DNA of 64,000 nucleotides, taken from Saccostrea cucullata (lineage: Eukaryota). The translations under genes were made by a program, and so were the position numbers. The notes beneath the pieces were generated by a model, which did not search any database, was not told where the DNA came from, and worked only from the letters and a program-made list of their open reading frames with translations. Below are positions 6,603-38,458 of the stretch, in pieces. How positions within the stretch are numbered: the stretch's first letter is position 1; each line of letters opens with the position of its first letter. The stretch spans positions 1-64,000 of the forward strand of contig NW_026938675.1 in NCBI RefSeq assembly GCF_032062105.1. The letters are read 5' to 3'.

Positions 6603-7344
6603 TAAGTACCGGAGATACTTAAATAAAGCCATAAAATGTCAAAAGTAGGTCACCGTGACTTACTTTTTGGTCGTCACTCTCCGAAAACTAAATATGCATC
6701 CACTCACAAAGTTTGATGAATCTAAGCCAATAAATATCTAAGATATTTAAATATAGCCATAAAATGTCGAAAGTAGGTCATCGTGATCTACATTTTGGTC
6801 GACATTTTTCGAAGCAATCGAACCAAGTTTGATGATCATAGTTCTGAAGGCAATCAAAATATGCATTTTAAACCAAAATTCGGCAAAATTCAAAAAGTAG
6901 GTCACAGTGACCTACTTTCTTATGAATATGTTTTAAGGTCCCTAGATGCATCAAAGTACAAGATTTGATGATTCTAAACCTACCAGTGTCTGAAATAATG
7001 GGATTTAATGTTTTTAAAAGGATGAGTCATAAAGTTCAAAAAGTAGGTCACGGTAATTCCCCGTGCAAATTTTAATCTTCGACATATCCTGATCCTTGTA
7101 TGTAAGTTTGGTGAAAATCTGCCTGGTGGTTATGGAGAAGAAGATTTTTTAGCAACCAGTACTTTTGGTTTTGTTTTCCTGATTATCTCCCCTTGTTTAA
7201 GGTTCCCAACCCTTATTTTAGTGTAAATGGTAGCCCTTGGGAGTAGTATAAGGCGCCTAGATAGGACCGCATTCTGATTGGCTGAGAGAATCACGTGATC
7301 AGTTCAGATTGGTTGAGGGGATAGGGAGGTCAACTGAGTGCAGT

Positions 7345-7484
7345 CCTAATCCCCTTAACCCTAACCCTAGCCCCCTATCCCCTAACCCTAATCCCCCTTA
7401 ACCCTATCCCTAACTCTAACTAACCCTATCCCCCTTAGCCCTCTAACCCTAACCCCCCTATCCCTAACCCTAACCTATCCCCTA
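7345..7484 (+). repeat. Degenerate (TAACCC)n telomere-like tract in left TIR
   Basis: Many CCCTAA/CCCTAT/CCCTAG units. Confidence 0.85.
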
Positions 7485-7716
7485 AATACGGGGCGCTTAC
7501 ACTGTGTTTACATTATACTATACGTTGGTACTACGATTTTGGCAGCGACTCAAAAGAATGTGATTATGACGTCACGCTTTCATTCACAGTCTACACAGCC
7601 TAACCGGTTCAAACTGGTTTTACTGAAAACAAATAACACACAATACAGATTAGAACACAGATTTTATTTAGAATGAAAAATACATCCAATTACATTTTCT
7701 TTTTCTTCTGTGCCTT

Positions 7717-8271
7717 TTATGTGGTCAAGGGAAGTTTCCTCTTGGTTTCCTGAGGGTTTTTTCCTTCAGTTTTTTGTATGTCTTTTACGAATACATAGCA
7801 TGGATCCATCTGTTTAATTTTCTTACTCTCTCCTGATCCCCCTGATCCTTCTTTTTTCTGGTAAGTGCTTCCTCCTCCTCCTTCTCTCATTTTATCTTGG
7901 CTGATAGTGACTTCTAATTTGAATAATTTGCCACGAATCACAGCAAATTCACTGCTGTTATAAGTTTTCAGTTTATTAAGCTTGTTATCAATATCACTCA
8001 CCTTGGTGTTCAGTTTATTCGCCTTTTTATCAAGATCATTCATCTTGGTGTTCATATCATTCAGTTTTTTATCAAGACCAGACAGCATGTTAACAATCCC
8101 ATCCAGAGTTGTATTTAAGATGCCCATATCTTCTTTATCCACATATTCAGGAAAATTATACATGCCCAAATTCAAATCCAAATCCACTGCATCCTGTAAC
8201 TCTGGCATGGGGCCTCCTACATATCCTTCAGGTGTCACATAATACTGGGGATTTTCTGAGGTATTCATCAT
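7717..8271 (-). CDS. 184-aa coiled-coil protein of unknown function (element cargo)
   Basis: Open frame with heptad run LDKKLNDMNTKMNDLDKKANKLNTKVSDIDNKLNKLK; minus-strand TATATAAA at ~8348-8355, TCAGT at ~8322-8326, AATAAA at ~7663-7668. Confidence 0.65.
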   Translation of the reverse strand: MMNTSENPQYYVTPEGYVGGPMPELQDAVDLDLNLGMYNFPEYVDKEDMGILNTTLDGIVNMLSGLDKKLNDMNTKMNDLDKKANKLNTKVSDIDNKLNKLKTYNSSEFAVIRGKLFKLEVTISQDKMREGGGGSTYQKKEGSGGSGESKKIKQMDPCYVFVKDIQKTEGKNPQETKRKLPLTT

Positions 8272-8419
8272 TGCTTCTATTTTTTCACTTCTGTCAAGTT
8301 TTGAAAAAATATCAACTAAGACTGATCTTTAAATTTTACAGTTTTGCTTTATATACCTGCTGTGGGCCGTGTGCACCTTTTACCTGCTTTTTTATACCTG
8401 TTACATCATCTGTAAGGAC

Positions 8420-8530
8420 TATGTGCAAAAAATTAGGGTCATGTGCAAAAAATACGATAGACGTACGTTTTTTTATGCTGACTATACAGGTAATACTAGG
8501 GGGACCGTGTGCAAAAGAAATATACGTTTT
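8420..8530. repeat. ~62-bp repeat cluster 1 (GTGTGCAAAA...TACGATAGAC.TACGTTTTT...CAGGTAATACT)
   Basis: About 1.5 units homologous to 11268-11450; TAGTATTAC on the minus strand at 8490-8498. Confidence 0.8.
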
Positions 8531-9124
8531 ACCTGCGTTTTCTAACAGGGGTATAAAATGACAAGAAAAAGTAAAAATTGATTTTACTGTGGGAGAACAT
8601 AGATGCGATGGAGAAAGTATGTATTCAATACGGAATGAAATGACTGGAAATTTCACACAGGTTAGGAAAATCAGTGACTTTTAATACCAAACCTCAAAAT
8701 CAAAAATCTATGAATTACTAGCCCCTGAAAGACCGGAGAAGTCCTTGGATGCAATGAATAGCGGATCGAATACGATTTCAGAGGAAAATTTTACAGTTAA
8801 GAAAGCTTTTTGTTAGTTTTTTAAGAAAATAAAAATCATGTAAATATCACGTTAGTGTTGTTATTATATGACGTCATCTTTTATACACTCGGGTTCGGGG
8901 TTTCCCCTCAATTTCGCTTTGTCACTGTGGTGGCGCTGTTTTCCAAAAGCGATTTTTTTTTAGCCAATCACATTTGATCACATGATGGATTGTTGATGTT
9001 TTGCCGCGATATTGGAGTATCGTCTGCTATTGTGTTTAAATACAAACCCTCCGAGCGCTCACTGTCATTCTGCATTTTATTCTGCTTGACTGACTACTGT
9101 ATAGAAAGAAGAAGAAAGAAGAAG

Positions 9125-9638
9125 ATGGAATTTCAAGAGGAATTATGGATGCTTCCCGGGATTGCCATCGAGCACCACATTATAGTGAGGCGCCTGGATA
9201 CAGGAGCGGAGATTTCACGCTACAGTGGCCACCAGGAGGGCGCACCCTTATACAAGTACTAGAAGACGACCAAGACCACCTTCAAGATCGCCTCCACCCC
9301 CGCCCAGACCCGCTGCTCCCACCCTCCAGGTACAGGCCCGGAATCAAGGGCGAATTCCCCGCTGGGGCTTCCGTGTCCCTACTCAGGACATTTTTTGTTC
9401 GCTGTGTATGTCTGAAGGAGAGCCCAGCAATTATTGTTGCTTGCGGTGCGTGCAGAGGCCCTCCTGCGTCTTATGCGCCGCCAGGGTGATAGAACAAGAA
9501 ATGCCCTGTCCCCTGTGTAGGAACCAGCAGCGGCTGCTCGTCCCTCTATCCAGGAGGACAGAATTTAGGCGTGAGGATGATTCATCGGATGATGAGCCTT
9601 CCATAGGCCGGATGGTGGAGGAACTATTAAACGCCTAG
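9125..9638 (+). pseudogene. Pro/Arg-rich RING-finger-like protein gene, probably one frameshift near 9190-9225
   Basis: ATG at 9125 (MEFQEELW...); the 9225-9638 frame contains CSLC...CCLRC...CVLC...CPLC and an acidic tail; TTTAAATA ~9036 and TCATT ~9065 upstream. Confidence 0.6.
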
Positions 9639-10591
9639 GGACCCCATCTGGAGCCACCTTGATCACAAAATGAAAAAAACCAAAAAAAAATTTTAAAAAC
9701 CAACAAAAATACCAAAAAAGGCCCTTTTAAGGGCCGCCCAATTGTTTAGAAAAGATGCCTACTTAAACAGTCGGTAACTAAGAAACGTGTTGTGTCTTAA
9801 AAAGATTTTCTTTTTTTTTCAAAAATACAATCAAAGTAACGATTGTATCTTAGAAAAAAGATGATGATCTTTTTTATAATACAGTCAACGAAAATGAAAC
9901 GATTTGTGTGTGTTCAAATAAAAAAAAGAAAAGATTACCTTATACAGTGGGTAAACAAAGAAAGAGTACCTTATACAGAGGGTAAACAAGAAACGTGTGT
10001 CTCTCAAGTTATAACACCAGGTCACATTTTTTTTTTTAAAAACTTAGAATTTTATTTAATAATAACTTTAACTTTTTTCACTTTTAAATTTTTTAACTTT
10101 TAAATTTTTTAATAATAATAATAATAATAATAAACCCTTTTTTAAAATAAATTCACATCAAACACAGACATATATTTTTTTATTTTTTCATCAAAACAAT
10201 AACACATACATACATACATACAAATACACTTAATGTAGATGAAGAATGTACACCTATTTTTGTCTTAAGTGTGTACAAATTGTTCAATATAATGTCTTTA
10301 ATGAGTCCAGTTTCCTTTTTCACCAAAAACAAACAATATCACGTACACTTCATGTGAATGAAGAATGTACACCTGTTTGTCATAAGTGTGGGGTATGTTC
10401 AATAGTACCTTGTATCTCCTGAAGACTCATGATGTTAAAAAATGAATCTATTTTTTAAAAACACCCTTGTTTTTATATAAAATACAACAACAACAATAAA
10501 AAACAGTTCAATCTTTTTTATTCAACATCTTGTGTTATCTACATACTGAAAGAACTTTTTTTTCTTCATAGCTTCTCTACCTGCAATGGCT

Positions 10592-11143
10592 TCAGGTTTT
10601 CTTCCAGGTTCCTATCTCCCATTGTATCCAATCTCTGGGGTCCAATTCTTTGTTTCTCTCCTCAGGTTTCGGAACACCAGATTCTTCATAGTCACCTCCT
10701 TGCTTGTAAAACATACTTTCCAATTCTGGGGTACTGCAAGACATAGCAAATCTGGCAGTACAATGAAGTTTTTAGATATCCAGTCCTCCTACTGGTCTTT
10801 TCATTTAAATGAATCCCCTGATTTGATGCAGTTCTCCTGTCCAGGGATGTCTTTCCTTTTGAATAATCAAATACTGGAAATCATCTTCCTTGCTCAGAAA
10901 CATATCTATATCTTCTTCTTCTTTGGGGTCTGAAATGATGAAAGTCCAATTAATGGCTATCCTGTAACATCTGTCTGGACATTTAGGATCCTTCACTTTC
11001 TCATGCAGGGGTAAATATTCATTCCTGGGTTCAGGATCCAGGGTTTTCAACTCTATTCTTCTTTTTGTTTGAGGAGCTTCGTGATCCACCTCCAGAGGTT
11101 CTATCATTCTCTTTTCTAATAAGGTAAATTTATCCATCTCCAT
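10592..11143 (-). pseudogene. CRESS-DNA-virus Rep-like HUH endonuclease domain, two in-frame TAA stops, no helicase domain
   Basis: Single frame: WTFIISDP (motif I-like), FQYLIIQKERHPWTGELHQIRGFI* (motif II-like), MKRPVGGLDI*KLHCTARFAMSCSTPELESMFYKQGGDYEESGVP (motif III region). Stops at 10805-10807 and 10772-10774; frame ends at TGA 10592. Confidence 0.7.
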
Positions 11144-11267
11144 GTCTTTTTTCTTCTAATATTCTTGGAATTTGTTTGGCCAAACTGTCGTTTACTCAAC
11201 TGCCCAACTGATGACGATTTTCTTTAACACCTTGTTTTTATACCCCAACCTTGAAAAGATAAGGAGC

Positions 11268-11450
11268 GTGTGCAAAATGTACGATAGACCTACGTTTTTT
11301 ATGCTGACTACACAGGTAATACTTGGGCTCGTGTGCAAAGAAATATACGATAGGCCTACGTTTTTATGCTAACTGCACAGGTAATACTTGCGCCGTGTGC
11401 AAAACATACGATAGACCTACGTTTTTTTTATGTACACAGGTAAATACTTG
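11268..11450. repeat. ~62-bp repeat cluster 2, three tandem units
   Basis: Three GTGTGCAAA...TACGATAG.CCTACGTTTTT...CAGGTAATACTTG units; AAGTATTAC on the minus strand at 11316-11324 and 11381-11389. Confidence 0.85.
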
Positions 11451-11853
11451 GCAGCGATTCAAGAATGAGATTATGACGTCACACTTTTTCATTCATAGTC
11501 TAGACAGTCTAACCAGTTTGAACTGGATTTTTTTACTGAAAACAAAAGACAAAGAACACAGAATTTTTGATTTTTCATTTTTATTTGTAACAACAAACAA
11601 CAACAAATAACAAACAACTTATTTACAATACATTTTGATAAAAACATTGACACTTTTGTCCAATATCCGTACGTAATTTATGATAAGTGTTTTGAAAATA
11701 AGTTGTTTGTTGTTTGTTGTTACAAATAAAAATAAAAAATTCTGTGTTTTTTGTCTTTTGTTTTCAGTAAAAAAATCCAATTCAAATTGGTTAGACTGTC
11801 TAGACTATGAATGAATGCGTGACGTCATAATGACATTTTTGAAACGCTGCCAA
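11449..11853. repeat. Large inverted repeat (arms ~190 bp, loop ~35 bp) made from inner-TIR sequence
   Basis: TTGGCAGCG...TGACGTCAC...AGTCTAGACAGTCTAACCA...CAACTTATTT mirrored at 11677-11853. Confidence 0.85.
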
Positions 11854-11906
11854 AATCGTAGTAGCAGCGTATAGTATAATGTAAACACAGTGTAACCGCC
11901 CCGTAT

Positions 11907-12042
11907 TTAGGGGATAGGTTAGGGTTAGGGCTAAGGGGGGGGGGGGTAGGGCAAGGGGGTTAGGGTTAAGGGTTTAGGGCTAGGGGTTAGGGTTAGAGGG
12001 CTAAAGGGGTAGGGATAGGGGTTAAGGTTAGGGGGTTAGGAC
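11907..12042 (+). repeat. Degenerate (TTAGGG)n telomere-like tract in right TIR
   Basis: GGGTTAGGGTTAGGG-type units mirroring 7345-7484. Confidence 0.85.
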
Positions 12043-13209
12043 TGGGTTGACCTCCCTATCCCCTCAACCAATCAGAACTGATCACGTGATTCTCTAAGCC
12101 AATCAGAATCCTCCCCTATCTAGGTGCCTTATACTACTCTTGGGCCAAGGATACCCTGTGACAAATTTGGTACCTATTGGCCAAGGGGTTCCTGAGTTAT
12201 ATGGCCCTTTTTCTAAAAAGTTTATGCACACCGCACAAATGTCCGTAGCATTAGCTCTTTGAGCCTTTGAGCCTCAGAAGAGCTAAAAATAAAGAGATAT
12301 ATATGTTACACATAAATATACGTATTTATTCCTTACGGCGCAATTCATCAAAATAGTCTGCTTGTTGTGAATCGAATTCTTCTATGACTGCAGGAATACT
12401 GTAACAGGACAGAAAACGGGAAATAATGCGGGAACTTGGTGCTAGAACTTTTAAATGGTTAAAAAGTATTACATACTGCTGAATGAGCCGCAATGCATTG
12501 TGGGCTACTACAAGTTCCCAGCTGTGTTGAAAATAAGGGGCAACTTGAATTGTCCCTTGGAAACTTATTTTTAATTCTTTTTTGAGATTTGTGAAAGAAA
12601 TATTTAAAATGATGTATAATCTTTCATTTCTATGCTCACATTTACAAAACTTGCTTTATGAAGCATAATATATCAACTCATAATATATCGGCCTAAATCA
12701 TTGTTCAAAGAGACGTAGATGCTATCGTTTCGATAAAACATTGATTTTTTTTTCACGTGATATTCGTGTACATAGTTTTAGCAGGTAGTATGTACGTCTT
12801 TGGTTTTAGACTACAGGAGAGGGTGTGCAATTATTATTTAACCCCTCAATATCATCAGAAAGTTTTTTTATGTACATGTACATGCAACCGTCAAAGCGTT
12901 TGTACGATATTCGAAGCAATTATTAATCATCTAAAACAAATACAATATTAAATGTGAGCATGGAGCAATGTCTTTAGAATATAATCTTTCAATTTCGGTC
13001 TTATAAAGTGATAAAGAAACTCTACAGTTTTTCCGGTAGCGAGTTAAATTTTGTGAAGTAAACCGACTAAAACCACGTGTCGCCATTGAATCGTAAACAC
13101 GTAGTAGACTGCCATGCTTTGGAACTCATTCACTTGATTGGAGAACAGGTGTGACGAGGACATCGTCACGTGTTGAAAATTGCCTTCCATATAAGGTAGT
13201 GGTCTCGAC

Positions 13210-14612
13210 CTGTTAAACCATGGCATTTTCTTATGTGTTGATTGTGACTGCCATCTGTTGATGTGACCATTTTCACATGTTGACACTGTAGAGATCATGG
13301 CGCCTTTGCTGTATTCTACAAGTGGGACACTTTTTCCATTACAAATATTACAGACAGATAAAAGTTGAGAAAGTGCACTTTCTGACACAACATAATATTT
13401 CTCCTCTGATGGATTATCTGTTTCATCTAATCTGTAGTTACATGTCTCCTCTTCATCTGATTCCTCGTCCAATTCTGAATCCTCAAAATCGCTTGCATTG
13501 AAATCAGAGTCAATATCTCTGTTATCATAATTTTCATCAGAACGTCATTCCTCATGTTCATTAATTGCCATATATGCATCCGTGTTGATACTGTCTGCTT
13601 GACTATTTAATATATTCTCTGTAGATTGTCCGCACTTAAAACAGTACTGTAATTCACTGCACTGAATTTCAGCATCAACTGTCTTGAAACCTATTTTTGA
13701 TTTACCTATTTGGATTCTTCTTGTCTTTGTTTTGACTTTGGGGTCTGGGATAAATGCCTGGATGGCTTTGTCAGCCAATAATGTCTCACATTCCGCAGAA
13801 GATGAAGGAGTTTCTTGTTCAGTTTCAGGAACTTCATCTACTTTTTCATTTTCATTACTATCTTCACTGTCATCACTCTCTATCATTGCCTCTTTTAATA
13901 CCTGTTTTTAATGTACAATTTCATTGAAAAATAAAAAAAAAACTTTTTGAAATAATCAATGTAAGATATACATAAAATGTTATATAAACTTAAACTATGA
14001 CATCAGCATTTGTAAATTGAGGTTGTGATCCCCCCTTTTTTCCTTGCTCTGCTTACTAATGTATAACAATTATTAACAACTATTTAGATGATCAATACAA
14101 AGAAACAACAAAATTCTATACATGTAAAATGAATTAACATCATAGCATTTTAAACCATTTTTTAAAAATGTAATTGTAATGTCACAAATATAATTAATAA
14201 AGAACAACATGTAAGTTTTTAACCATATTTTAAAGAATAACTAGGTTTTTTTTACCTCAAGTCTTTGTCGCTTTCTAAATGCACCAAATCCTGGTGATTT
14301 TTTCTCAGTGTTTGATGAAGTTGAACATTCGTCTTGGATAGGCCACTCAGCATCGGGTACAGCATCAATCTTTAATTGCGCACGAGCATTAGGATAACCT
14401 AATTCAGCTAACCGGGGTGGATAACGTGAATATTGAACTGCCGTAAAGTGTTTCTCACATATTTTACTGTACTTTGTAAATTTAAGGTCTCTTCTACGGC
14501 AGTAATGTACCCATGATTTTTGAAGACCTGCATCTTTTGGGAAGCGAAAAAATGACACATTTTTGTCCACTTTTGAGGAGCTTGAACAATTATAAACAGC
14601 ACAATAAGGCAT
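13210..14612 (-). pseudogene. THAP-domain transposase 5' part (Kolobok-like), two exons, truncated; copy 1
   Basis: Exon 1 MPYCAVYNC...FFRFP...W...C...ICEKHF...AVP (THAP), GT donor ~14255. Exon 2 from ~13901 is acidic, then YYVVSESALSQLLSVCNIC...CENGHINRWQSQ; internal TGA at 13545. Confidence 0.7.
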
Positions 14613-14779
14613 CCTTACAAACTATAAATAACTCTGAACACAAAGAAATGTAATTGTGCAAGTTCTTTATTTATGACTTAAAATATAACCCATTACTGGC
14701 AATTAAGGAAACTATTTGTCTTTGATCAATGATAAGAAAGATTTATAGTATCTCTGGCTGAAACATTTAATAGCATCTC

Positions 14780-16237
14780 TGTGCTGTAACTGATCTCTGA
14801 CGTCACTCCCGACTCTTTCCGATCTCTGGGCTTTAATGTCCAAGTGATGAAGTCCCTGAAGAGAACATTGAAGATCAATTTAACAACAATGGAAATTCTG
14901 AAGTCGAAAACACCTTGCCTGTTAAAGACAAGACCCATGATAAACCGTTAGAGAGGAGCAGGGAGGAGAATAATGGACACTTGTCAACCCCAATCCAGAT
15001 GGAACCTACGAAATCAAGACTGGGCAGGCTTATAAAAACTCCAACAAGATTTAGAAAATAAACACTTAAAACTTGCTTCTATGTAAAAATGTTCCAATGT
15101 TTTGACTGCAATATTACGTACAAACATAAAAGGAATTTACAGAGACATTTAGAAGAACACCATTATTCCAGGAAGAAAGTTTATCAATGTGACATTTGTC
15201 AAAAGATAATTACAAGGAATTTTAACTTTAAAAACATTATTTTTCGCAACACAGTTTAATGGAAGTTTTAAATGACCTTTCGCCAGAAGATATTTTAAAC
15301 ATTTCTTGTGACCAGAATATGGATTATACTGTGAAAAGCGATTTGTATGAGGACATTTCATCTGATGAAGAAGAGTCCGAGCTATCACAAGATTCCGAGG
15401 ATTGTAACAAAACAGAAGAGAACTTGAGTGCCGAGGACATTAATGAGGAAGAAAAAGACAGTGTTTCTGAGGAGAAGAAATCGATTACAATCCAGTTAAT
15501 TCATAGAAGAATCAAACACCGTGATGGACATTCGGAAATCGTAAAAGCAATAAACTTTTCTTATTCCGAAGAAATGAAAGAGGTGCCAGTGGTAGATTTG
15601 ATGACCGATTTCATGGACGATTTCTTGGACAATTCCAATGAGAGAAAGGAATGAACTGTGACCGTGTATAAACTAGTAAATAGATGACATTTTAATGTTT
15701 TTTTTAATTCATCATTTATGAGTATTTTTGTTTAAAACTGCTATCATTGCATATATGATGATGTATATCGTTGATTTTGTTTTATTAAAATGACTTTGTG
15801 TTTTATTACAAAGAGGAATTATTATCAGGAGCTACCAAAATATGAATGTGAAAAGGATTTACTCGGAAACGCTACACAAGTAGTGAGGAAAGTAGTGATC
15901 ATAATAATACAGCGCGTGACAATTCTACCGTGAAAAAATCAACTGTGTGTTGGATACTAAACAAAACAATCAGGAATTACCCTGATGGTACTATGGAGGT
16001 GAGCCGGGACACTCGTGTGGTCTATTCCGAGGATTTAACACCTAGTGACATTGACTATGAAAGTGTAGCTTCGGAGGTTTTATCCGAAATTCCGAAACAT
16101 TTCGAGGAGGGAAATGTTAGATTCGCGTGTGGCGACTTTACCCATTTGTGAAAAAACGAACATATTTGACTGTAAATATTGTCTCAAGTGATGTTTAAAT
16201 GTACATACAGCTTATAACTTATTATGTTTTATTGTAG
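14780..16237 (+). mobile_element. Gypsy-like LTR element 3' fragment with pol tail and C2H2/acidic extra ORF(s); copy 1
   Basis: Pol tail SRLGRLIKTPTRFRK* ending ~15061. ATG 15089 CFDC...H...H / CDIC zinc fingers join ORF 15259-15654 by a 1-nt A-run frameshift. 15930-16151 carries NYPDGTMEV. Homologous to 26058-26789. Confidence 0.7.
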
Positions 16238-17089
16238 CTGCAGATCTGTAGCTCTCCGAAATATATATATATTGATAGACCGGAGAGCTACAGAGCCACC
16301 CATTGAAAAAACTGTATATTTATTGCGCACAAAAAATTACCTATCTGTTTACTTTACATACTGCTGAATGAGCCGCAATGCATTGTGGGCTACTACATGT
16401 TCCCAGCTGTGTTGAAAATAAGGGGCGACTTGAATTGTCCCTTGGAAACTTATTTTTAATTCTTTTTTGAGATTTGTGAAAGAAATATTTAAAATGATGT
16501 ATAATCTTTCATTTCTATGCTCACATTTACAAAACTTGCTTTATGAAGCATAATATATCAACTCATAATATATCGGCCTAAATCATTGTTCAAAGAGACG
16601 TAGATGCTATCGTTTCGATAAAACATTGATTTTTTTTTTCACGTGATATTCGTGTACATAGTTTTAGCAGGTAGTATGTAGGTCTTTGGTTTTAGACTAC
16701 AGGAGAGGGTGTGCAATTATTATTTAACCCCTCAACATCATCAGAAAGTTTTTTATGTACATGCAACCGTCAAAGCGTTTGTACGATATTCGAAGCAATT
16801 ATTAATCATCTAAAACAAATACAATATTAAATGTGAGCATGGACCAATGTCTTTAGAATATAATCTTTCAATTTCGGTCTTATAAAGCGATAAAGAAACT
16901 CTACAGTTTTTCCGGTAGCGAGTTAAATTTTGTGAAGTAAACCGACTAAAACCACGTGTCACCATTGAATCGTAAACACGTAGTAGACTGCCATGCTTTG
17001 GAACTCATTCACTTGATTGGAGAACGGGTGTGACAAGGACATCGTCACGTGTTGAAAATTGCCTTCCATATAAGGTAGTGGTCTCGACC

Positions 17090-19495
17090 TGTTAAACCAT
17101 GGCATTTTCTTATGTGTTGATTGTGACTGCAATCTGTTGATGTGACCATTTTCACATGTTGACACTGTAGAGATCATGGCGGCTTTGCTGTATTCTACAA
17201 GTGGGACACTTTTTCCATTAAAAATATTACAGGCAGATAAAAGTTGAGAAAGTGCACTTTCTGACACAACATAATATTTCTCCTCTGATGGATTATCTGT
17301 TTCTTCTAATCTGTAGTTACATGTCTCCTCTTCATCTGATTCCTCGTCCAATTCTGAATCCTCAAAATCGCTTGCATTGAAATCAGAGTCAATATCTCTG
17401 TTATCATAATCTTCATCAGAACAATTCCTCATGTTCATTAGTTGCCATATATGCATCCGTGTTGATACTGTCTGCTTGACTATTTAATATATTCTCTGTA
17501 GATTGTCCGCACTTAATACAGTACTGTAATTCACTGCACTGAATTTCAGCATCAACTGTCTTGAAACCTACAGCTCAACAAACTTTTTAAGCTCACATGG
17601 TTTTTCGCACAAATTAAGGTCACATTGATATGATATAATATTGTGTATAGAGACAACAAAATACATTTTAAAAGTATTTTGTCTACATAATTTGAGTTCT
17701 ATTTTATTTACTGAAACATAATTCACACAAATCAATTGGTCGAACTTTGATATATTCATGGCTGCAAAATAACAACTATTCTCATTTGAATTTTTGTAGT
17801 TTCTTGCCAATTGTAACTGTCTTTTTATCCGTTCTTTTGAAAGCAATAGCTCTTGGCAGAAACGTAGACATCGGTACAGTACAGCTACTGTAACTTGTAT
17901 TTTCTGTTCATATTGACTCTTTAACTCGGGGTGGTAATAGTATTTTTATCTGTTTGACTGCTATCTATGTTAATAAGGTGGGATTTTTAAGAGTCAACTT
18001 CTAAAATCTAGAATCATGAAAGATTCATCTCAGTGCAAAATTTTAACGTTTCAAACCGTAAATGCAGAAGAATTTTCCTTTTCATAGAAGGAATTTACTG
18101 TTCAAAATAATAAACAATACTTCATTATCCTACCCTTTAGTGTGGTTTCCTGTTGCAATATTATCCCTTTCCGGTGCTTTATTTCGACGAAACAAAGAGG
18201 AGTATGGTAAATGAGCAAAGATTTTTTAAAAATACTCACCTTTAAGAAGAAAATTTAAAAAATTCAACAACATGGGATCAAGGAGAGCTCGTTTAATACA
18301 ATGTGTAAAAACCTATGGTAGAATCGTACAGTCGAAACATCCTACCATTTATTATAAATTTTCCTTTAAAACATCCACTTTGGAAACTTAAATAAATGTG
18401 TTTTTGTGAAGTATTTTCATAATGATTTTAAAAGACATTTATGCTTGACATTATATATGTAATATAACGCAGGGTTATGCCATTGTACTGCAGTTCCAAA
18501 ATTGTTATTTTTATTTCAACAATGTGACCTTAATTTGTGCGAAAAACCATGTGAGCTTAAAAAGTTTGTTGAGCTGTATTTTTGATTTACCTATTTGGAT
18601 TCTTCTTGTCTTTGTTTTGACTTTGGGGTCTGGGATAAATGCCTGGATGGCTTTGTCAGCCAATAATGTCCCACATTCCGCAGAAGTTTCCGCAGGAGTT
18701 TCTTGTTCAGTTTCAGGAACTTCATCTACTTTTTCATTTTCATTACTATCTTCACTGTCATCACTCTCTATCATTGCCTCTTTTAAAACCTGTTTTTGAT
18801 GTACAATTTCATTGAAAAATAAAAAAAAATACTTTATGAAATAATCAATGTAAGAAATACATAAAATGTTATATAAACTTAAACTATGACTTTGTAAATT
18901 GAGGTTGTGATCCCCCCTTTTTTCCTTGCTCTGCTTACTAATGTATAACAATTATTAACAACTATTTAGATGATCAATACAAAGAAACAACAACATTCTA
19001 TACATGTAAAATGAATTAACATCATAGCATTTTAAACCATTTTTTTAAAAATGTAATTGTAATGTCGCAAATATAATTAATAAAGAACAACATACAAGTT
19101 TTTAACCATATTTTAAAGAATAACTAGGTTTTTTTTTACCTCAAGTCTTTGTCGCTTTCTAAATGCACCAAATCCTGGTGATCTTTCTCAGTGTTTGATG
19201 AAGTTGAACATTCGTCTTGGATAGGCCACTCAGCATCGGGTACAGCATCAACCTTTAATTGCGCACGAGCATTAGGATAACCTAATTCAGCTAACCGGGA
19301 TGGATAACGGGAATATTGAACTGCCGTAAAGTGTTTCTCACATATTTTACTGTACTTTGTAAATTTAAGGTCTCTTCTACGGCAGTAATGTACCCATGAT
19401 TTTTGAAGACCTGCGTCTTTTGGGAAGCGAAAAAATGACACATTTTTGTCCACTTTTGAGGAGCTTGAACAATTATAAACAGCACAATAAGGCTT
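17090..19495 (-). pseudogene. THAP/Kolobok-like transposase 5' part; copy 2
   Basis: Paralogue of 13210-14612; start ATG changed to AAG, frameshifts, MITE inserted in exon 2. Confidence 0.7.
17571..18576. mobile_element. Tc1/mariner-type non-autonomous element, 1006 bp
   Basis: ~57-bp TIR CAGCTCAACAAACTTTTTAAGCTCACATGG...; TA TSD; empty site with a single TA in copy 1 at ~13692. Confidence 0.92.
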
Positions 19496-21117
19496 CCTTA
19501 CAAACTATGAATAACTCTGAACACAAAGAAATGTAATTGTGCAAGTTCTTTATTTATGACTTAGAAATATAACCCATTACTGGCAATTAAGGAAACTATT
19601 TGTCTTTGATCAATGATAAGAAATATTTATAGTATCTCTTTGGCTGAAACATTTAATAGCATCTCTGTGCTGTAACTGATCTCTGACGTCACTCCCGACT
19701 CTTTCCGATCTCTGGGCTTTAATGTCCAAGTGATGAAGTCCCTGAAGAGAACAATGAAGATCAATTTAACAACAATGGAAATTCTGAAGTCGAAAACACC
19801 TTGCCTGTTAAAGACAAGACCCATGATAAACCGTTAGAGAGGAGCAGGGAGGAGAATAATGGACACATGTCAACCCCATTCCAGATGGAACCTACGAAAT
19901 CAAGACTGGGCAGGCTTATAAAAACTCCAACAAGATTTAGAAAATAAACACTTAAAACTTGCTTCTATGTAAAAATGTTCCAATGTTTTGACTGCAATAT
20001 TACGTACAAACATAAAAGGAATTTACAGAGACATTTAGAAGAACACCATTATTCCAGGAAGAAAGTTTATCAATGTGACATTTGTCAAAAGATATTTACA
20101 AGGAATTTTAACTTTAAAAACATTATTTTTCGCAACACGGTTTAATGGAAGTTTTAAATGACCTTTCGCCAGAAGATATTTTAAACATTTCTTGTGACCA
20201 GAATATGGATTATACTGTGAAAAGCGATTTGTATGAGGACATTTCATCTGATGAAGAAGAGTCCGAGCCATCACAAGATTCCGAGGATTGTAACAAAACA
20301 GAAGAGAACTTGAGTGCCGAGGACATTAATGAGGAAGAAAAAGACAGTGTTTCTGAGGAGAAGAAATCGATTACAATCCAGTTAATTCAGAGAAGGATCA
20401 AACACCGTGATGGACATTCGGAAATCGTAAAAGCAATAAACTTTTCTTATTCCGAAGAAATGAAAGAGGTGCAAGTGATAGACTTGATGACCGATTTCAT
20501 GGACAATTTCTTGGACAATTCCAATGAGAGAAAGAAATGAACTGTGACCGTGTATAAACTAGTAAATAGATGACATTTTAATGTTTTTTTAAATTCATCA
20601 TTTATGAGTATTTTTGTTTAAAACTGCTATCATTGCATATATGATGATGTATATCGTTGATTTTGTTTTATTAAAATGACTTTGTGTTTTATTACAAAGA
20701 GGAATTATTATCAGGAGCTACCAAAATATGAATGTGAAAAGAATTTACTCGGAAACGCTACACAAGTAGTGAGGAAAGTAGTGATCATAATACAGCGCGT
20801 GACAATTCTACCGTGAAAAAATCAACTGTGTGTTGGATACTAAACAAAACAATCAGGAATTACCCTGATGGTACTATGGAGGTGAGCCGGGACACTCCTG
20901 TGGTCTTTTCCGAGGATTTAACACCTAGTGACATTGACTATGAAAGTGTAGCTTCGGAGGTTTTATCCGAAATTCCGAAACATTTCGAGGAGGGAAATGT
21001 TAGATTCGCGTGTGGCGACTTTACCCATTTGTGAAAAAACGAACATATTTGACTGTAAATATTGTCTCAAGTGATGTTTAAATGTACATACAGCTTATAA
21101 CTTATTATGTTTTATTG

Positions 21118-36478: not shown

Positions 36479-38458
36479 TTTAGCTCTTCTGTGCCAAAGG
36501 CTCAAAGAGCTAATGCTATGGCCATTTGTGCGGTGTGCGTAAACTTTATAGAATATGGGCCATAACTCAGGAACCCCTTGGCCAATAGGTACCAGATTTG
36601 TCACAGGGTATCCTTGGTCCAAGGGCTACCATTTATACTAAAATAAGGGTTCGGACCCTTAAACAAGGGGAGATAATCAGGAAAACAAAAAAACAAAACC
36701 AAAAGTACTGGTTGCTAAAAAATCTTCTTCTCCATAACCACCAGGCAGATTTTCACCAAACTGACATACAAGGATCAGGATATGTCGATTTAAATTTGCA
36801 CGGGGAATTACCCTGGGGCAAAGGGCGTGGTCTCAAGGTCTCTTCAAAGTTGACCTAAATTTACAATTGATAAAACGTGTATATTTTGCTTACTATAAAG
36901 ACTAAGATCATCAAATCTTGTAAGTTTATGCACCTTACGACTTCACAATATGTTAGTGCAAAAGTAGGTCACGGTGACCTACTTTTTAAATGTTGCGGGG
37001 ATTTGTTTTCAAAAATATTTGAAGGCATATTTTGGACACTGTAAGGCCTATGATCATCAAACTTTGTCAGTTGATGCATCTTGGGTCCTCGAACAATGTC
37101 AACTTAAAAGTCGGTCACCGTGACCTACTTTTTGAACTTAATGACTTATCCTTTTAAAAACATAAATCCTATTATTTCAGACTCTGGGAGGTTTAGAATC
37201 ATCAAATCTTGTACTTTGATGCATCTAGGGACCTTAAAACATATTCATATAAAAGTAGGTCACTGTGATCTACTTTTTGAATTTGGCGACATTTGTTATC
37301 AAATGGTTTAAAATGCATATTTTGATTACCTTCAGACCTATGATCATCAAACTTGGTCGGTAGATGCATCTTGGGTCTTCGGAAAATTGTCAACCAAAAT
37401 GTAGGTCACGATGACCTACTTTCGACATTTTATGGCTATATTTAAGTATCTTAGGTATTTATTGGCTTAGATTCATAAAACTTTGTGAGTGGAAGCATAT
37501 TTAGTTTTCGGAGAGTGACGACCAAAAAGTAGGTCATGGTGACCTACTTTTGACATTTTGTGGCTATAATCAAGTATCTACTTATTGACATAAAATCATC
37601 AAACTTTGTCAGTTGATGCATCTTGGGTTTTCGGAGATTGTCGACCAAAAAGTAGTTCACAGTGACCTACTTTTGACATATGGCTATATTTAAGTATCTC
37701 AGGCACTTATTGGCTAAGAATCATCAAACTTTGTCAGTTGAGGCATCTTGGGTTTTCGGAGAATGTCGACCAAAAAGTAGGTCACCGTGACCTACTTTTG
37801 AATATCTCAGGTACGTATTAGCTTAGAATCATCAAACTTTGTCAGTTTAGGCACCTTGGGTTTTCGGAGAACGTCGACCAAAAAGTAGGTCACTGTGACC
37901 TACTTTTGACATTTTATGGCTATTTTTAATTATATCTGGTACTTATTGGCTCGGAATCATCAAACTTTGTCAGTTGAGGCATCTTACGGTTTCATTGAAT
38001 GTCCAACAAGAAGTAGGTCACGGTGACCTACTTTTGAATATCTCAGGTACTTATTGGCTTAAAGTCAGCAAATTTTGTCAGTTCAGGCATCTTGGGTTTT
38101 TGCATAACGTCGACCAAAAAGTAGGTCACCGTGACCTACTTTGCCATTTGATGGGTATATTTAATTATCTCTGGTACTAATTGGCTTAGAATCGTCAAAC
38201 TTTGTCAGATGATGCATCTTGGGTTTTTAGAGAATGTTGACCAAAGAGTAAGTCATGGTGACCTACTTTTGATTCACTGTGACCTACTTATGGTATTTTA
38301 TAATTATATCTTCAGTCTTAACTGGCTAAATATTATCAAACTTTGTAAGTTGATGCATTTTGGGTCTTATGATACTATTAGAGTTCGAGGCTTCTAATAG
38401 AAGTGATAGATTGTACAATTTATCAGAAGAGCGATTCAAGGCCCATGGGCCTCTTGTT
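36479..38458 (+). mobile_element. Helentron-type element with internal ~80-100-bp tandem repeats
   Basis: TTTAGCTCTTCTG head; many GGTCAC.GTGACCTACTTTT / ATCATCAAACTTTGTCAGTTG units; AAGAGCGATTCAAGGCCCATGGGCCTCTTGTT tail. Confidence 0.9.

Follow-up and report, generated by a model that had tools for sequence, protein, structure and literature searches.

A predicted CRESS Rep endonuclease domain with an altered active site, carried as an optional accessory gene by Polintons of Saccostrea cucullata

In a 64,000-nucleotide stretch of the Saccostrea cucullata genome (contig NW_026938675.1, positions 1 to 64,000; hereafter the window), a frame broken by stop codons and resembling the Rep endonuclease of CRESS single-stranded DNA (ssDNA) viruses lies between ends of Polinton type. 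The locus raises the question of whether this frame is a one-off insertion of viral sequence or the remnant of a gene that belongs to the element, and of what such a domain could do there. The frame, here called Rep1, runs on the minus strand, which the original prediction had left unstated, from 11143 to 10592 and comprises 183 codons and a closing TGA. As that prediction described it, reading through two in-frame TAA codons (113 and 124, read as X) gives one continuous frame, of which the plain open reading frame (ORF) covers the first 112 codons; the three peptides quoted as motifs I to III are all found in the order claimed, and no SF3 helicase follows. Intact copies have ORFs that end at about 186-227 aa, and the window copy stops short of intact copies of 210-212 aa. 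On its own, the window protein matches Pfam Viral_Rep with E=0.0033 and 18.1 bits, under the 26-bit cut-off, and no Rep appears among its matches to solved structures; with a single-protein match so weak, stronger tests of Rep likeness were required. An SH3/RUN-TBC1 match that covers 40 residues when the protein is searched singly (E 0.009) was rejected, as it falls to E 0.29 with a profile and gains no support from the fold, and a plus-strand 127-aa ORF (10550-10933) was set aside as a shadow frame whose length varies among other copies.

A homology profile was built from 16 natural copies of the domain. Searched against 1.84 billion representatives at E<=0.001, it retrieved 31 proteins, two of them family members and 29 others, the best of these more distant proteins at E 3.9e-8; 26 of the 29 pass the Viral_Rep (PF02407) cut-off, and 11 match the helicase family as well. 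Against the PDB, the Rep of the nanovirus faba bean necrotic yellows virus (FBNYV) ranks first (E 0.0036). Viral_Rep is matched by 8 of 9 intact copies, with single copies scoring 12.5-22.9 bits, below the cut-off. An AlphaFold model of the domain (pLDDT 65), computed without templates from an alignment of Polinton copies only, with no active Rep, retrieves circovirus Rep domains first in Foldseek, and the named viral models it matches are CRESS Reps; in a wide search its matches include 7KII and 8H56 (both Z 10.9) and 6H8O (Z 10.0), the best unrelated chain reaching 7.6. The full-length model, also template-free and computed with no active Rep in its alignment, drew three proteins of a sister family (see below) into that alignment and has pLDDT 52, with 60-83 in the domain blocks and low confidence over the N-terminal 60 residues; it agrees with the domain model (Z 11.5, 104 residues, rmsd 3.4; best unrelated chain Z 8.0). 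Judged by profile and predicted fold, the likeness to Rep exceeds chance, and the window frame and its natural copies are classified here as CRESS Rep endonuclease domains, as the original prediction had it. Its label "circovirus-like" is too narrow: by sequence a nanovirus comes out best, in structural comparison circovirus and nanovirus Reps draw level, and the tree, with its unnamed matches, singles out no donor.

Disarmed Rep-derived proteins appear to extend beyond this species. A sister family of 92-131-aa proteins (P0030, P0062, P0063 and P0064), on contigs of 0.7-1.8 kb from JGI/ENA metagenomes, aligns to the Polinton Rep genes at 97.7% probability and groups with them on a long branch with support of 93/86. 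Its members are without the His and the Tyr-x-x-Lys, three of the four have the Arg described below, and no sequence in this genome exceeds 43% identity to P0030. In viral contigs, JGI metagenome contigs and GenBank phages, scans that need close peptide matches brought up no relatives of the Rep-like genes, and PHROGs gave zero matches for the proteins. In the genome itself, two endogenous CRESS Reps score above the cut-off. They lie in near-identical degenerate elements, L051 (G000:C1763:118979-122224) and L052 (G000:C21072:974-4219), with Viral_Rep at 60.2 bits and with helicase-like fragments and an Arg-rich capsid-like ORF on one strand, apparently partly in tandem. A role for them as direct donors is not supported, their Reps not being close to the Polinton genes (25-27 bits). 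A separate cluster in Logan, P0034, consists of a 113-aa protein with the Rep endonuclease domain only and intact motifs; it has 30 members, one of them on 132 contigs that reach 8.8 kb. In the tree its grouping with the endogenous CRESS elements of this genome is loose, and it may be either a spliced Rep or a further captured gene.

The Polinton-type ends named in the original prediction are real. Terminal inverted repeats starting with AG and a 6-bp target duplication are characteristic of Polintons, and the 4,897-bp unit that contains Rep1 (7242-12138; Table 1) has inverted ends beginning AG and a 6-bp duplication, CTTGGG, on either side. Its inverted repeats of about 400 bp are identical at 345 of 386 aligned bases end to end, and both carry degenerate telomere-like CCCTAA/TTAGGG arrays (7345-7475 and 11917-12040). 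An empty site was recovered, with the flanks joined in reads or contigs of all four runs, skipping 4,903 bases, and with six letters at the joint that fit either side in three of the four; the element ends and the 6-bp duplication are therefore fixed. Other copies of the host repeat hit by the insertion may be the source of this empty form. The window element, from which pPolB and integrase are absent, corresponds to the accessory end of a longer Polinton, and it would be mobilised in trans by full-length copies.

Table 1. Features of the deleted Polinton element in the window
Feature	Position	Strand	Basis
Left target-site duplication, CTTGGG	7236..7241	.	Empty-site joint 7235->12139, 6 shared letters
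Terminal inverted repeat, starts AGTAGT, with telomere-like CCCTAA-type repeats	7242..7649	+	345 of 386 aligned bases identical to the other end
Coiled-coil ORF, homologue of last gene in full-length Polintons	7717..8328	-	66% identity
Promoter-type repeat unit with TAGTATTAC at 8490-8498 (minus); TATA-like box on plus strand	8430..8560	-	
Frameshifted remnant of Polinton gene with PP1c-binding-like region	8580..8814	+	Intact homologue match
Broken RING-finger gene	9131..9635	+	Weak RING match
Rep1, predicted CRESS-Rep-derived endonuclease-fold gene, catalytically altered, helicase-less, broken	10592..11143	-	Frame, profile and fold
Rep1 upstream region: three ~65-bp units, two with AAGTATTAC and one with AAGTATTTAC, and a TATA-like box	11236..11460	-	
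Internal fold-back (11448-11635 / 11685-11853), marks deletion junction	11448..11853	.	
Weak match to 3' end of protease-like gene, inside fold-back	11626-11760		
Second terminal inverted repeat, ends ACTACT	11741..12138	-	345 of 386 aligned bases identical to the other end
Right target-site duplication, CTTGGG	12139..12144	.	Empty site

Several other repeats share the window. Nested duplications of 98-99% identity, spaced 3.9 and 4.9 kb, occupy ~12400-21100 and include ORFs at 14241 and 19136 that are presumably THAP-like. At ~25292-33043 there is an LTR retrotransposon whose direct repeats are 99% identical and whose long gag/pol-like ORFs read on the minus strand. Two arrays in which units of 108-146 bp have a palindromic core (36861-38368 and 51033-52766), a 21-bp self-complementary tandem array (58024-58561) and a reverse-transcriptase ORF (59649-61163; RVT_1 E 5e-38) complete the list.

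The intact paralogues that the original prediction wished to see exist in the 1.17-Gb genome of the same species. Searching it with Rep1 yielded 431 candidates, of which 150 were scored to give 152 matches; 51 of the 55 best are stop-free in a ranking that favours intact copies. A second paralogue, Rep2, is about 55% identical to Rep1 over the domain and often stands in tandem with it; its own search lists at least 150 matches, the lowest-ranked of which are cross-hits to Rep1. On five contigs, the flanking DNA shows Rep1 within longer Polintons. Four of these share a gene order of pPolB, IAP, A32 ATPase, small ORFs and integrase with chromodomain, followed by putative minor and major capsid, protease-like, Rep1, Rep2 and macrodomain-like genes, with RING, PP1c-binding-like and coiled-coil genes toward the Polinton end (not every copy shows each of them); the fifth is truncated upstream inside the capsid gene. 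Pfam cut-offs are passed for pPolB, BIR, A32, rve and chromo, with DNA_pol_B_2 at E 7.9e-58, rve at E 3.5e-11 beside the chromodomain and the A32 packaging ATPase at E 1e-5 in full-length copies. The macrodomain-like and PP1c-binding-like assignments are weaker than these, and the protease-like gene has a weak match only (ASFV S273R, E 0.077). The genes that we take to be minor and major capsid are named by position and size; they have zero library matches, and a scan of viral contigs that needs a close peptide match gave no relatives. At one locus (L040:8356-8856), the PP1c-binding-like gene matches PF10488 PP1c_bdg at E 2.5e-5, just under the cut-off; we assume that it resembles GADD34/ICP34.5. 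It adjoins the RING and macrodomain-like genes, and the IAP (BIR+RING) comes after pPolB. Rather than being a one-off insertion, the window Rep1 is the pseudogene form of an accessory gene of Polintons.

The slot between the protease-like and macrodomain-like genes holds 0, 1 or 2 Rep-like genes. Within 3.5 kb downstream at the best 100 protease-gene loci, and counting the matches listed, both genes occur at least at 51 loci, Rep1 only at 21, Rep2 only at 6 and neither at 22, the presence of either gene being a lower bound. Among 20 loci fetched for lacking a listed match, 12 pass directly from the protease to the macrodomain gene, 5 hold remnants and 3 are truncated. On the tree of the protease gene the state of the slot is scattered, with at least 6 changes, 2 of them forced by strong branches; the tree is unrooted, and therefore no order of gain and loss is claimed. 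At two loci, L059 and L080, Rep1 is cut off soon past motif I at an identical junction, a shared deletion lineage. The slot is dispensable. Being both optional and scattered, it marks the Rep gene as an optional accessory rather than a replicase or transposase.

The active site gives further insight into what the encoded proteins could do. The alterations noticed in motifs II and III of the window copy are borne out across both paralogues. Motif III aligns without gaps to active Reps, with Phe at the position of the catalytic Tyr and Gln at that of the Lys; motif II has one extra residue, with Arg on the Gln of HUQ and the Glu retained. HQIRG and FYKQ are found in 30 of 30 Rep1 copies; in Rep2, Arg precedes the motif-II Gly in 45 of 45, and motif III reads FYRQ in 42 and FCRQ in 1, with 2 not scorable (Phe in 43/43 scorable). 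Phe thus replaces the catalytic Tyr in every scorable copy of either gene. The Glu metal ligand is kept in 30/30 Rep1 and 43/45 Rep2 copies, and a His is retained at -4 and/or -3 in motif II. By contrast, the distant matches have HuQG in 26 of 29 and the motif-III Tyr in 27. A Tyr stands one residue past the Phe in nearly all copies, without a partner Lys, and no register of Rep1 or Rep2 yields Tyr-x-x-Lys. Conserved positions cluster on the active-site strands, where one Arg is invariant in 18 rows covering Rep1, Rep2 and the sister family. Intact ORFs are also without SF3 helicase, the next gene being Rep2 or the macrodomain-like gene, and the search for a longer, helicase-fused form found none, which is weak evidence. 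On these residues, Rep1 and Rep2 very probably lack nicking activity. Since the altered residues are common to both paralogues, inactivation is likely to predate the duplication, an order that we hold with considerable confidence.

Selection was estimated as pooled pairwise dN/dS over the domain, after dropping copies with stops or less than 85% coverage. Between Rep1 and Rep2, dN is 0.33 and dS 2.16, the latter near saturation, for a ratio of 0.15 (95% 0.08-0.34); this between-paralogue value is free of the bias that lowers within-group values, for which top-scoring matches were chosen. Such within-group ratios are 0.30 for Rep1 (0.16-0.62, 30 copies), 0.15 for the main Rep2 group (0.07-0.35) and 0.38 for a divergent Rep2 group, and the comparison of main with divergent Rep2 gives 0.67 (0.35-1.37), not separable from neutral. 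The control genes give 0.17 (protease-like) and 0.39 (macrodomain-like). Purifying selection, as read from these ratios, appears to have kept Rep1 and Rep2. In three oligo-dT runs (~45% of each read), no peak falls on Rep1 or Rep2 of a 10-kb natural copy; coverage is 0-4 reads per mate direction, no more than for the neighbours. Two RNA runs gave essentially zero reads on the window Rep1 copy.

How, then, could a disarmed Rep domain have entered a Polinton, and what would keep it there? Capture from an ssDNA virus, as first proposed for the window copy, is supported, and so are the altered motifs and the loss of the helicase. That it took place during co-infection is the step of which we are most confident: a Polinton ancestor would have taken up the 5' end of a CRESS Rep, which would then have lost catalysis and duplicated with its fold kept. 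Alternatively, a Rep domain already disarmed might have been received from another virus. With a replicative role excluded, a non-cutting binder remains, a role that the original prediction had put forward as possible. In PCV2 Rep the metal ligands are Glu48, His57 and Gln59, and the Tyr96Phe form has been crystallised together with origin ssDNA (PMC7826260); a change of the Tyr-to-Phe type is therefore compatible with binding without cutting. We consider it reasonably probable that Rep1 and Rep2 retain DNA binding; losing the metal ligand may weaken ssDNA binding too.

Under the reading that we prefer, and to which we give about an even chance, the Rep genes encode a captured, catalytically dead accessory DNA binder, likely occupying CRESS-type origins and hindering co-infecting ssDNA viruses. 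Intact Rep1 and Rep2 proteins would sit on such origins in the nucleus and would not cut them. That CRESS origins or Reps are the target is a somewhat less secure part of this reading. It is the leading guess because of the conflict-type neighbours (the accessory genes around the slot are IAP, RING, PP1c-binding-like and macrodomain-like), the turnover of the slot, a presumed shared nucleus and the endogenous CRESS Reps of the genome. Poisoning of Rep hexamers is less plausible, since most of the oligomerisation domain is missing. A bolder version, in which the Polinton Rep is a dedicated anti-CRESS origin-trapping weapon (Phe for Tyr, Arg for a metal ligand), duplicated for wider targets and spread beyond this species, with hundreds of germline copies forming a heritable defence of element and host and with the element's nonamer repeats co-opted as sites, is tentative and can be given only a minor chance. 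It is as a guess that we rank interference with CRESS viruses ahead of self-regulation and host-directed exaptation.

It could also be speculated that the dead Reps bind the Polinton's own ~65-bp repeats and so tune its transcription, latency or replication, much as the origin-binding domains of papillomavirus E1 and polyomavirus T, which have a related fold, regulate their own element. E1 and T-antigen domains are among the fold matches of both models, and the nonamers AAGTATTAC (twice, in ~65-bp repeats upstream of Rep1) and TAGTATTAC (8490-8498) lie on the Rep coding strand and equal the origin nonamers of PCV2 and FBNYV (PMC7826260). WAGTATTAC occurs 6 times in the window where 1.56 are expected (0/100 shuffles), 3 of the 6 being the repeat copies; the chance of the nonamer in one 65-nt unit is ~0.0014 for a motif noticed after the fact. 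The unit recurs at four intergenic sites of a full element, near TATA-like and TGACGTCA boxes. However, the looser NANTATTAC is not enriched in the window (21 vs 15.4, 7/100 shuffles), there is no stable hairpin around the nonamer (-1.1 to -5.3 kcal/mol), and in Rep1 loci an extra-T variant is commonest (22/29 units), with the exact nonamer in 5/29. The unit is moreover present in 8 of 12 Rep-less elements and missing from 8 of 31 Rep1 loci. It reads best as a Polinton promoter repeat, its nonamer as a captured-origin relic or putative binding site being a weak lead, and self-regulation is in our view unlikely. Upstream in L005-L008, L017, L019, L028 and L086, ~21-bp AAAAGATGATGCAA-type repeat arrays replace the ~65-bp promoter unit.

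Still less probable is exaptation for interaction with the host, where the fold would serve as a scaffold for a host protein or nucleic-acid sensor unrelated to CRESS origins. The neighbouring host-manipulation genes, the new low-confidence N-terminal extensions of both paralogues and the even more reduced active site of the sister family would suit it, but conservation on the former active-site strands and the invariant Arg fit phosphate binding better than a host scaffold. The conserved Glu, metal-site His and adjacent Tyr might instead suggest an active atypical nickase, using that Tyr and an Arg for the metal ligand in Polinton replication, recombination or Replitron-like self-mobility, and helicase-less Rep transposases do exist (PMC10288648). 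We regard this as very unlikely: Tyr-x-x-Lys is absent in any register, the 6-bp duplication and inverted ends are typical of the integrase route, Rep-less elements are common, and among the loci examined the gene occurs only in a Polinton context. Membership of the Replitrons was likewise rejected, with the Y1/HUQ Rep disarmed and the terminal repeats inverted, not direct. Finally, a dead CRESS fragment might simply be amplified with the transposon as a neutral passenger, in keeping with the dispensable slot, the near-neutral comparison of main with divergent Rep2 and the lack of specific RNA. Against this stand paralogues that have diverged to ~55% identity and a dS of ~2 with both frames open and the low ratio between them, together with the scarcity of stops among the best Rep1 matches; the dN/dS estimates appear to have largely refuted it, and we give it hardly any weight.

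When placed beside known systems, the Polinton gene shows several partial parallels. The origin-binding domains of papillomavirus E1 and polyomavirus LT are non-nicking binders. HHV-6 U94 is Rep-derived with an inactive nuclease (PMC10193959). The gene described here resembles U94, E1 and T in having a Rep-derived domain with inactive nuclease, but those retain the SF3 helicase, and U94 is parvovirus-derived. With the Rep domains of CRESS viruses (PCV2 8H56/2HW0, Muscovy duck circovirus 7KII, FBNYV 6H8O/2HWT), it shares the fold (Z 10.0-11.5, rmsd 2.7-3.4 A over 88-104 residues), the order and spacing of motifs I-III and the Glu ligand; unlike them, it has Arg for the HUQ Gln, Phe for Tyr and Gln for Lys, is without SF3 helicase and CRESS capsid, shows no clear stem-loop origin, and has an added N-terminal extension.

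The closest known case is that of avipoxvirus apvRep-1/-3/-4, described as endonuclease-only captured CRESS Reps of unknown function (Kinsella and van der Hoek 2023, PMC10193959). There too, by that account, a dsDNA virus captured the endonuclease domain only, HUH/HUQ is inactivated, the catalytic Tyr is missing, several paralogues exist and selection is purifying (0.23 for apvRep-1). Here, in contrast, the recipient is an integrating Polinton with many germline copies, the genes form a tandem pair in a variable slot, and the capture was presumably independent. Dominant-negative defence was proposed for the apvReps (PMC10193959); as the Polinton is presumed nuclear, the objection those authors raise from cytoplasm and nucleus falls away. 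Replitrons (Craig 2023, PMC10288648) are eukaryotic mobile elements with a helicase-less CRESS-related Rep domain as well, but their Rep keeps HUQ and the catalytic Tyr and is the transposase, and their ends are short direct terminal repeats, whereas the Polinton ends are inverted and its Rep is a predicted inactive accessory. Other small dsDNA genomes, those of Polinton relatives among them, carry CRESS-type Reps: "Circovirus Rep-like nickases" occur in Gulliviroviridae virophages (bioRxiv 10.64898/2026.10.13.758929), and there are CressRep adomaviruses and parvoviruses (PMC11071296); according to these sources, Rep is a replicase or initiator there (auxiliary in Parvo3071), whereas the Polinton described here has pPolB as replicase and a Rep that is disarmed and optional. 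In pPolB, rve integrase with chromodomain, A32 ATPase, accessory genes, inverted ends and 6-bp duplication it resembles the Polintons and adintoviruses of PMC8502044 and PMC11071296, the available portions of which mention no Rep-derived accessory gene. The same holds for a disarmed Rep in a Polinton in the accessible parts of PMC11071296, PMC11296320, PMC11521997, PMC10175614, PMC8502044, PMC10288648 and bioRxiv 10.1101/2025.04.19.649669, although the genome maps of PMC11071296 and of the preprints could hold one. A Rep of a CRESS virus that appears disarmed is thus already known from a dsDNA virus, the avipoxvirus; for a Polinton, we found no report in literature searches or in these sources.

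In conclusion, the Polintons of S. cucullata would add a second example, apparently independent of the first, in which a dsDNA virus retains under selection a CRESS Rep that is disarmed and helicase-less, the recipient here being nuclear and integrating, whereas the poxvirus is cytoplasmic. That the outcome has recurred suggests some general advantage of keeping a disarmed Rep, and the replacement found in nature for the catalytic Tyr matches the laboratory change used to trap origin DNA. The role of a captured Rep should also be easier to test in this system, with its small proteins and with elements of 0, 1 and 2 genes coexisting in one genome. That genome records CRESS infection, and the Polinton Rep genes imply that this animal was once co-infected by Polintons and CRESS viruses.
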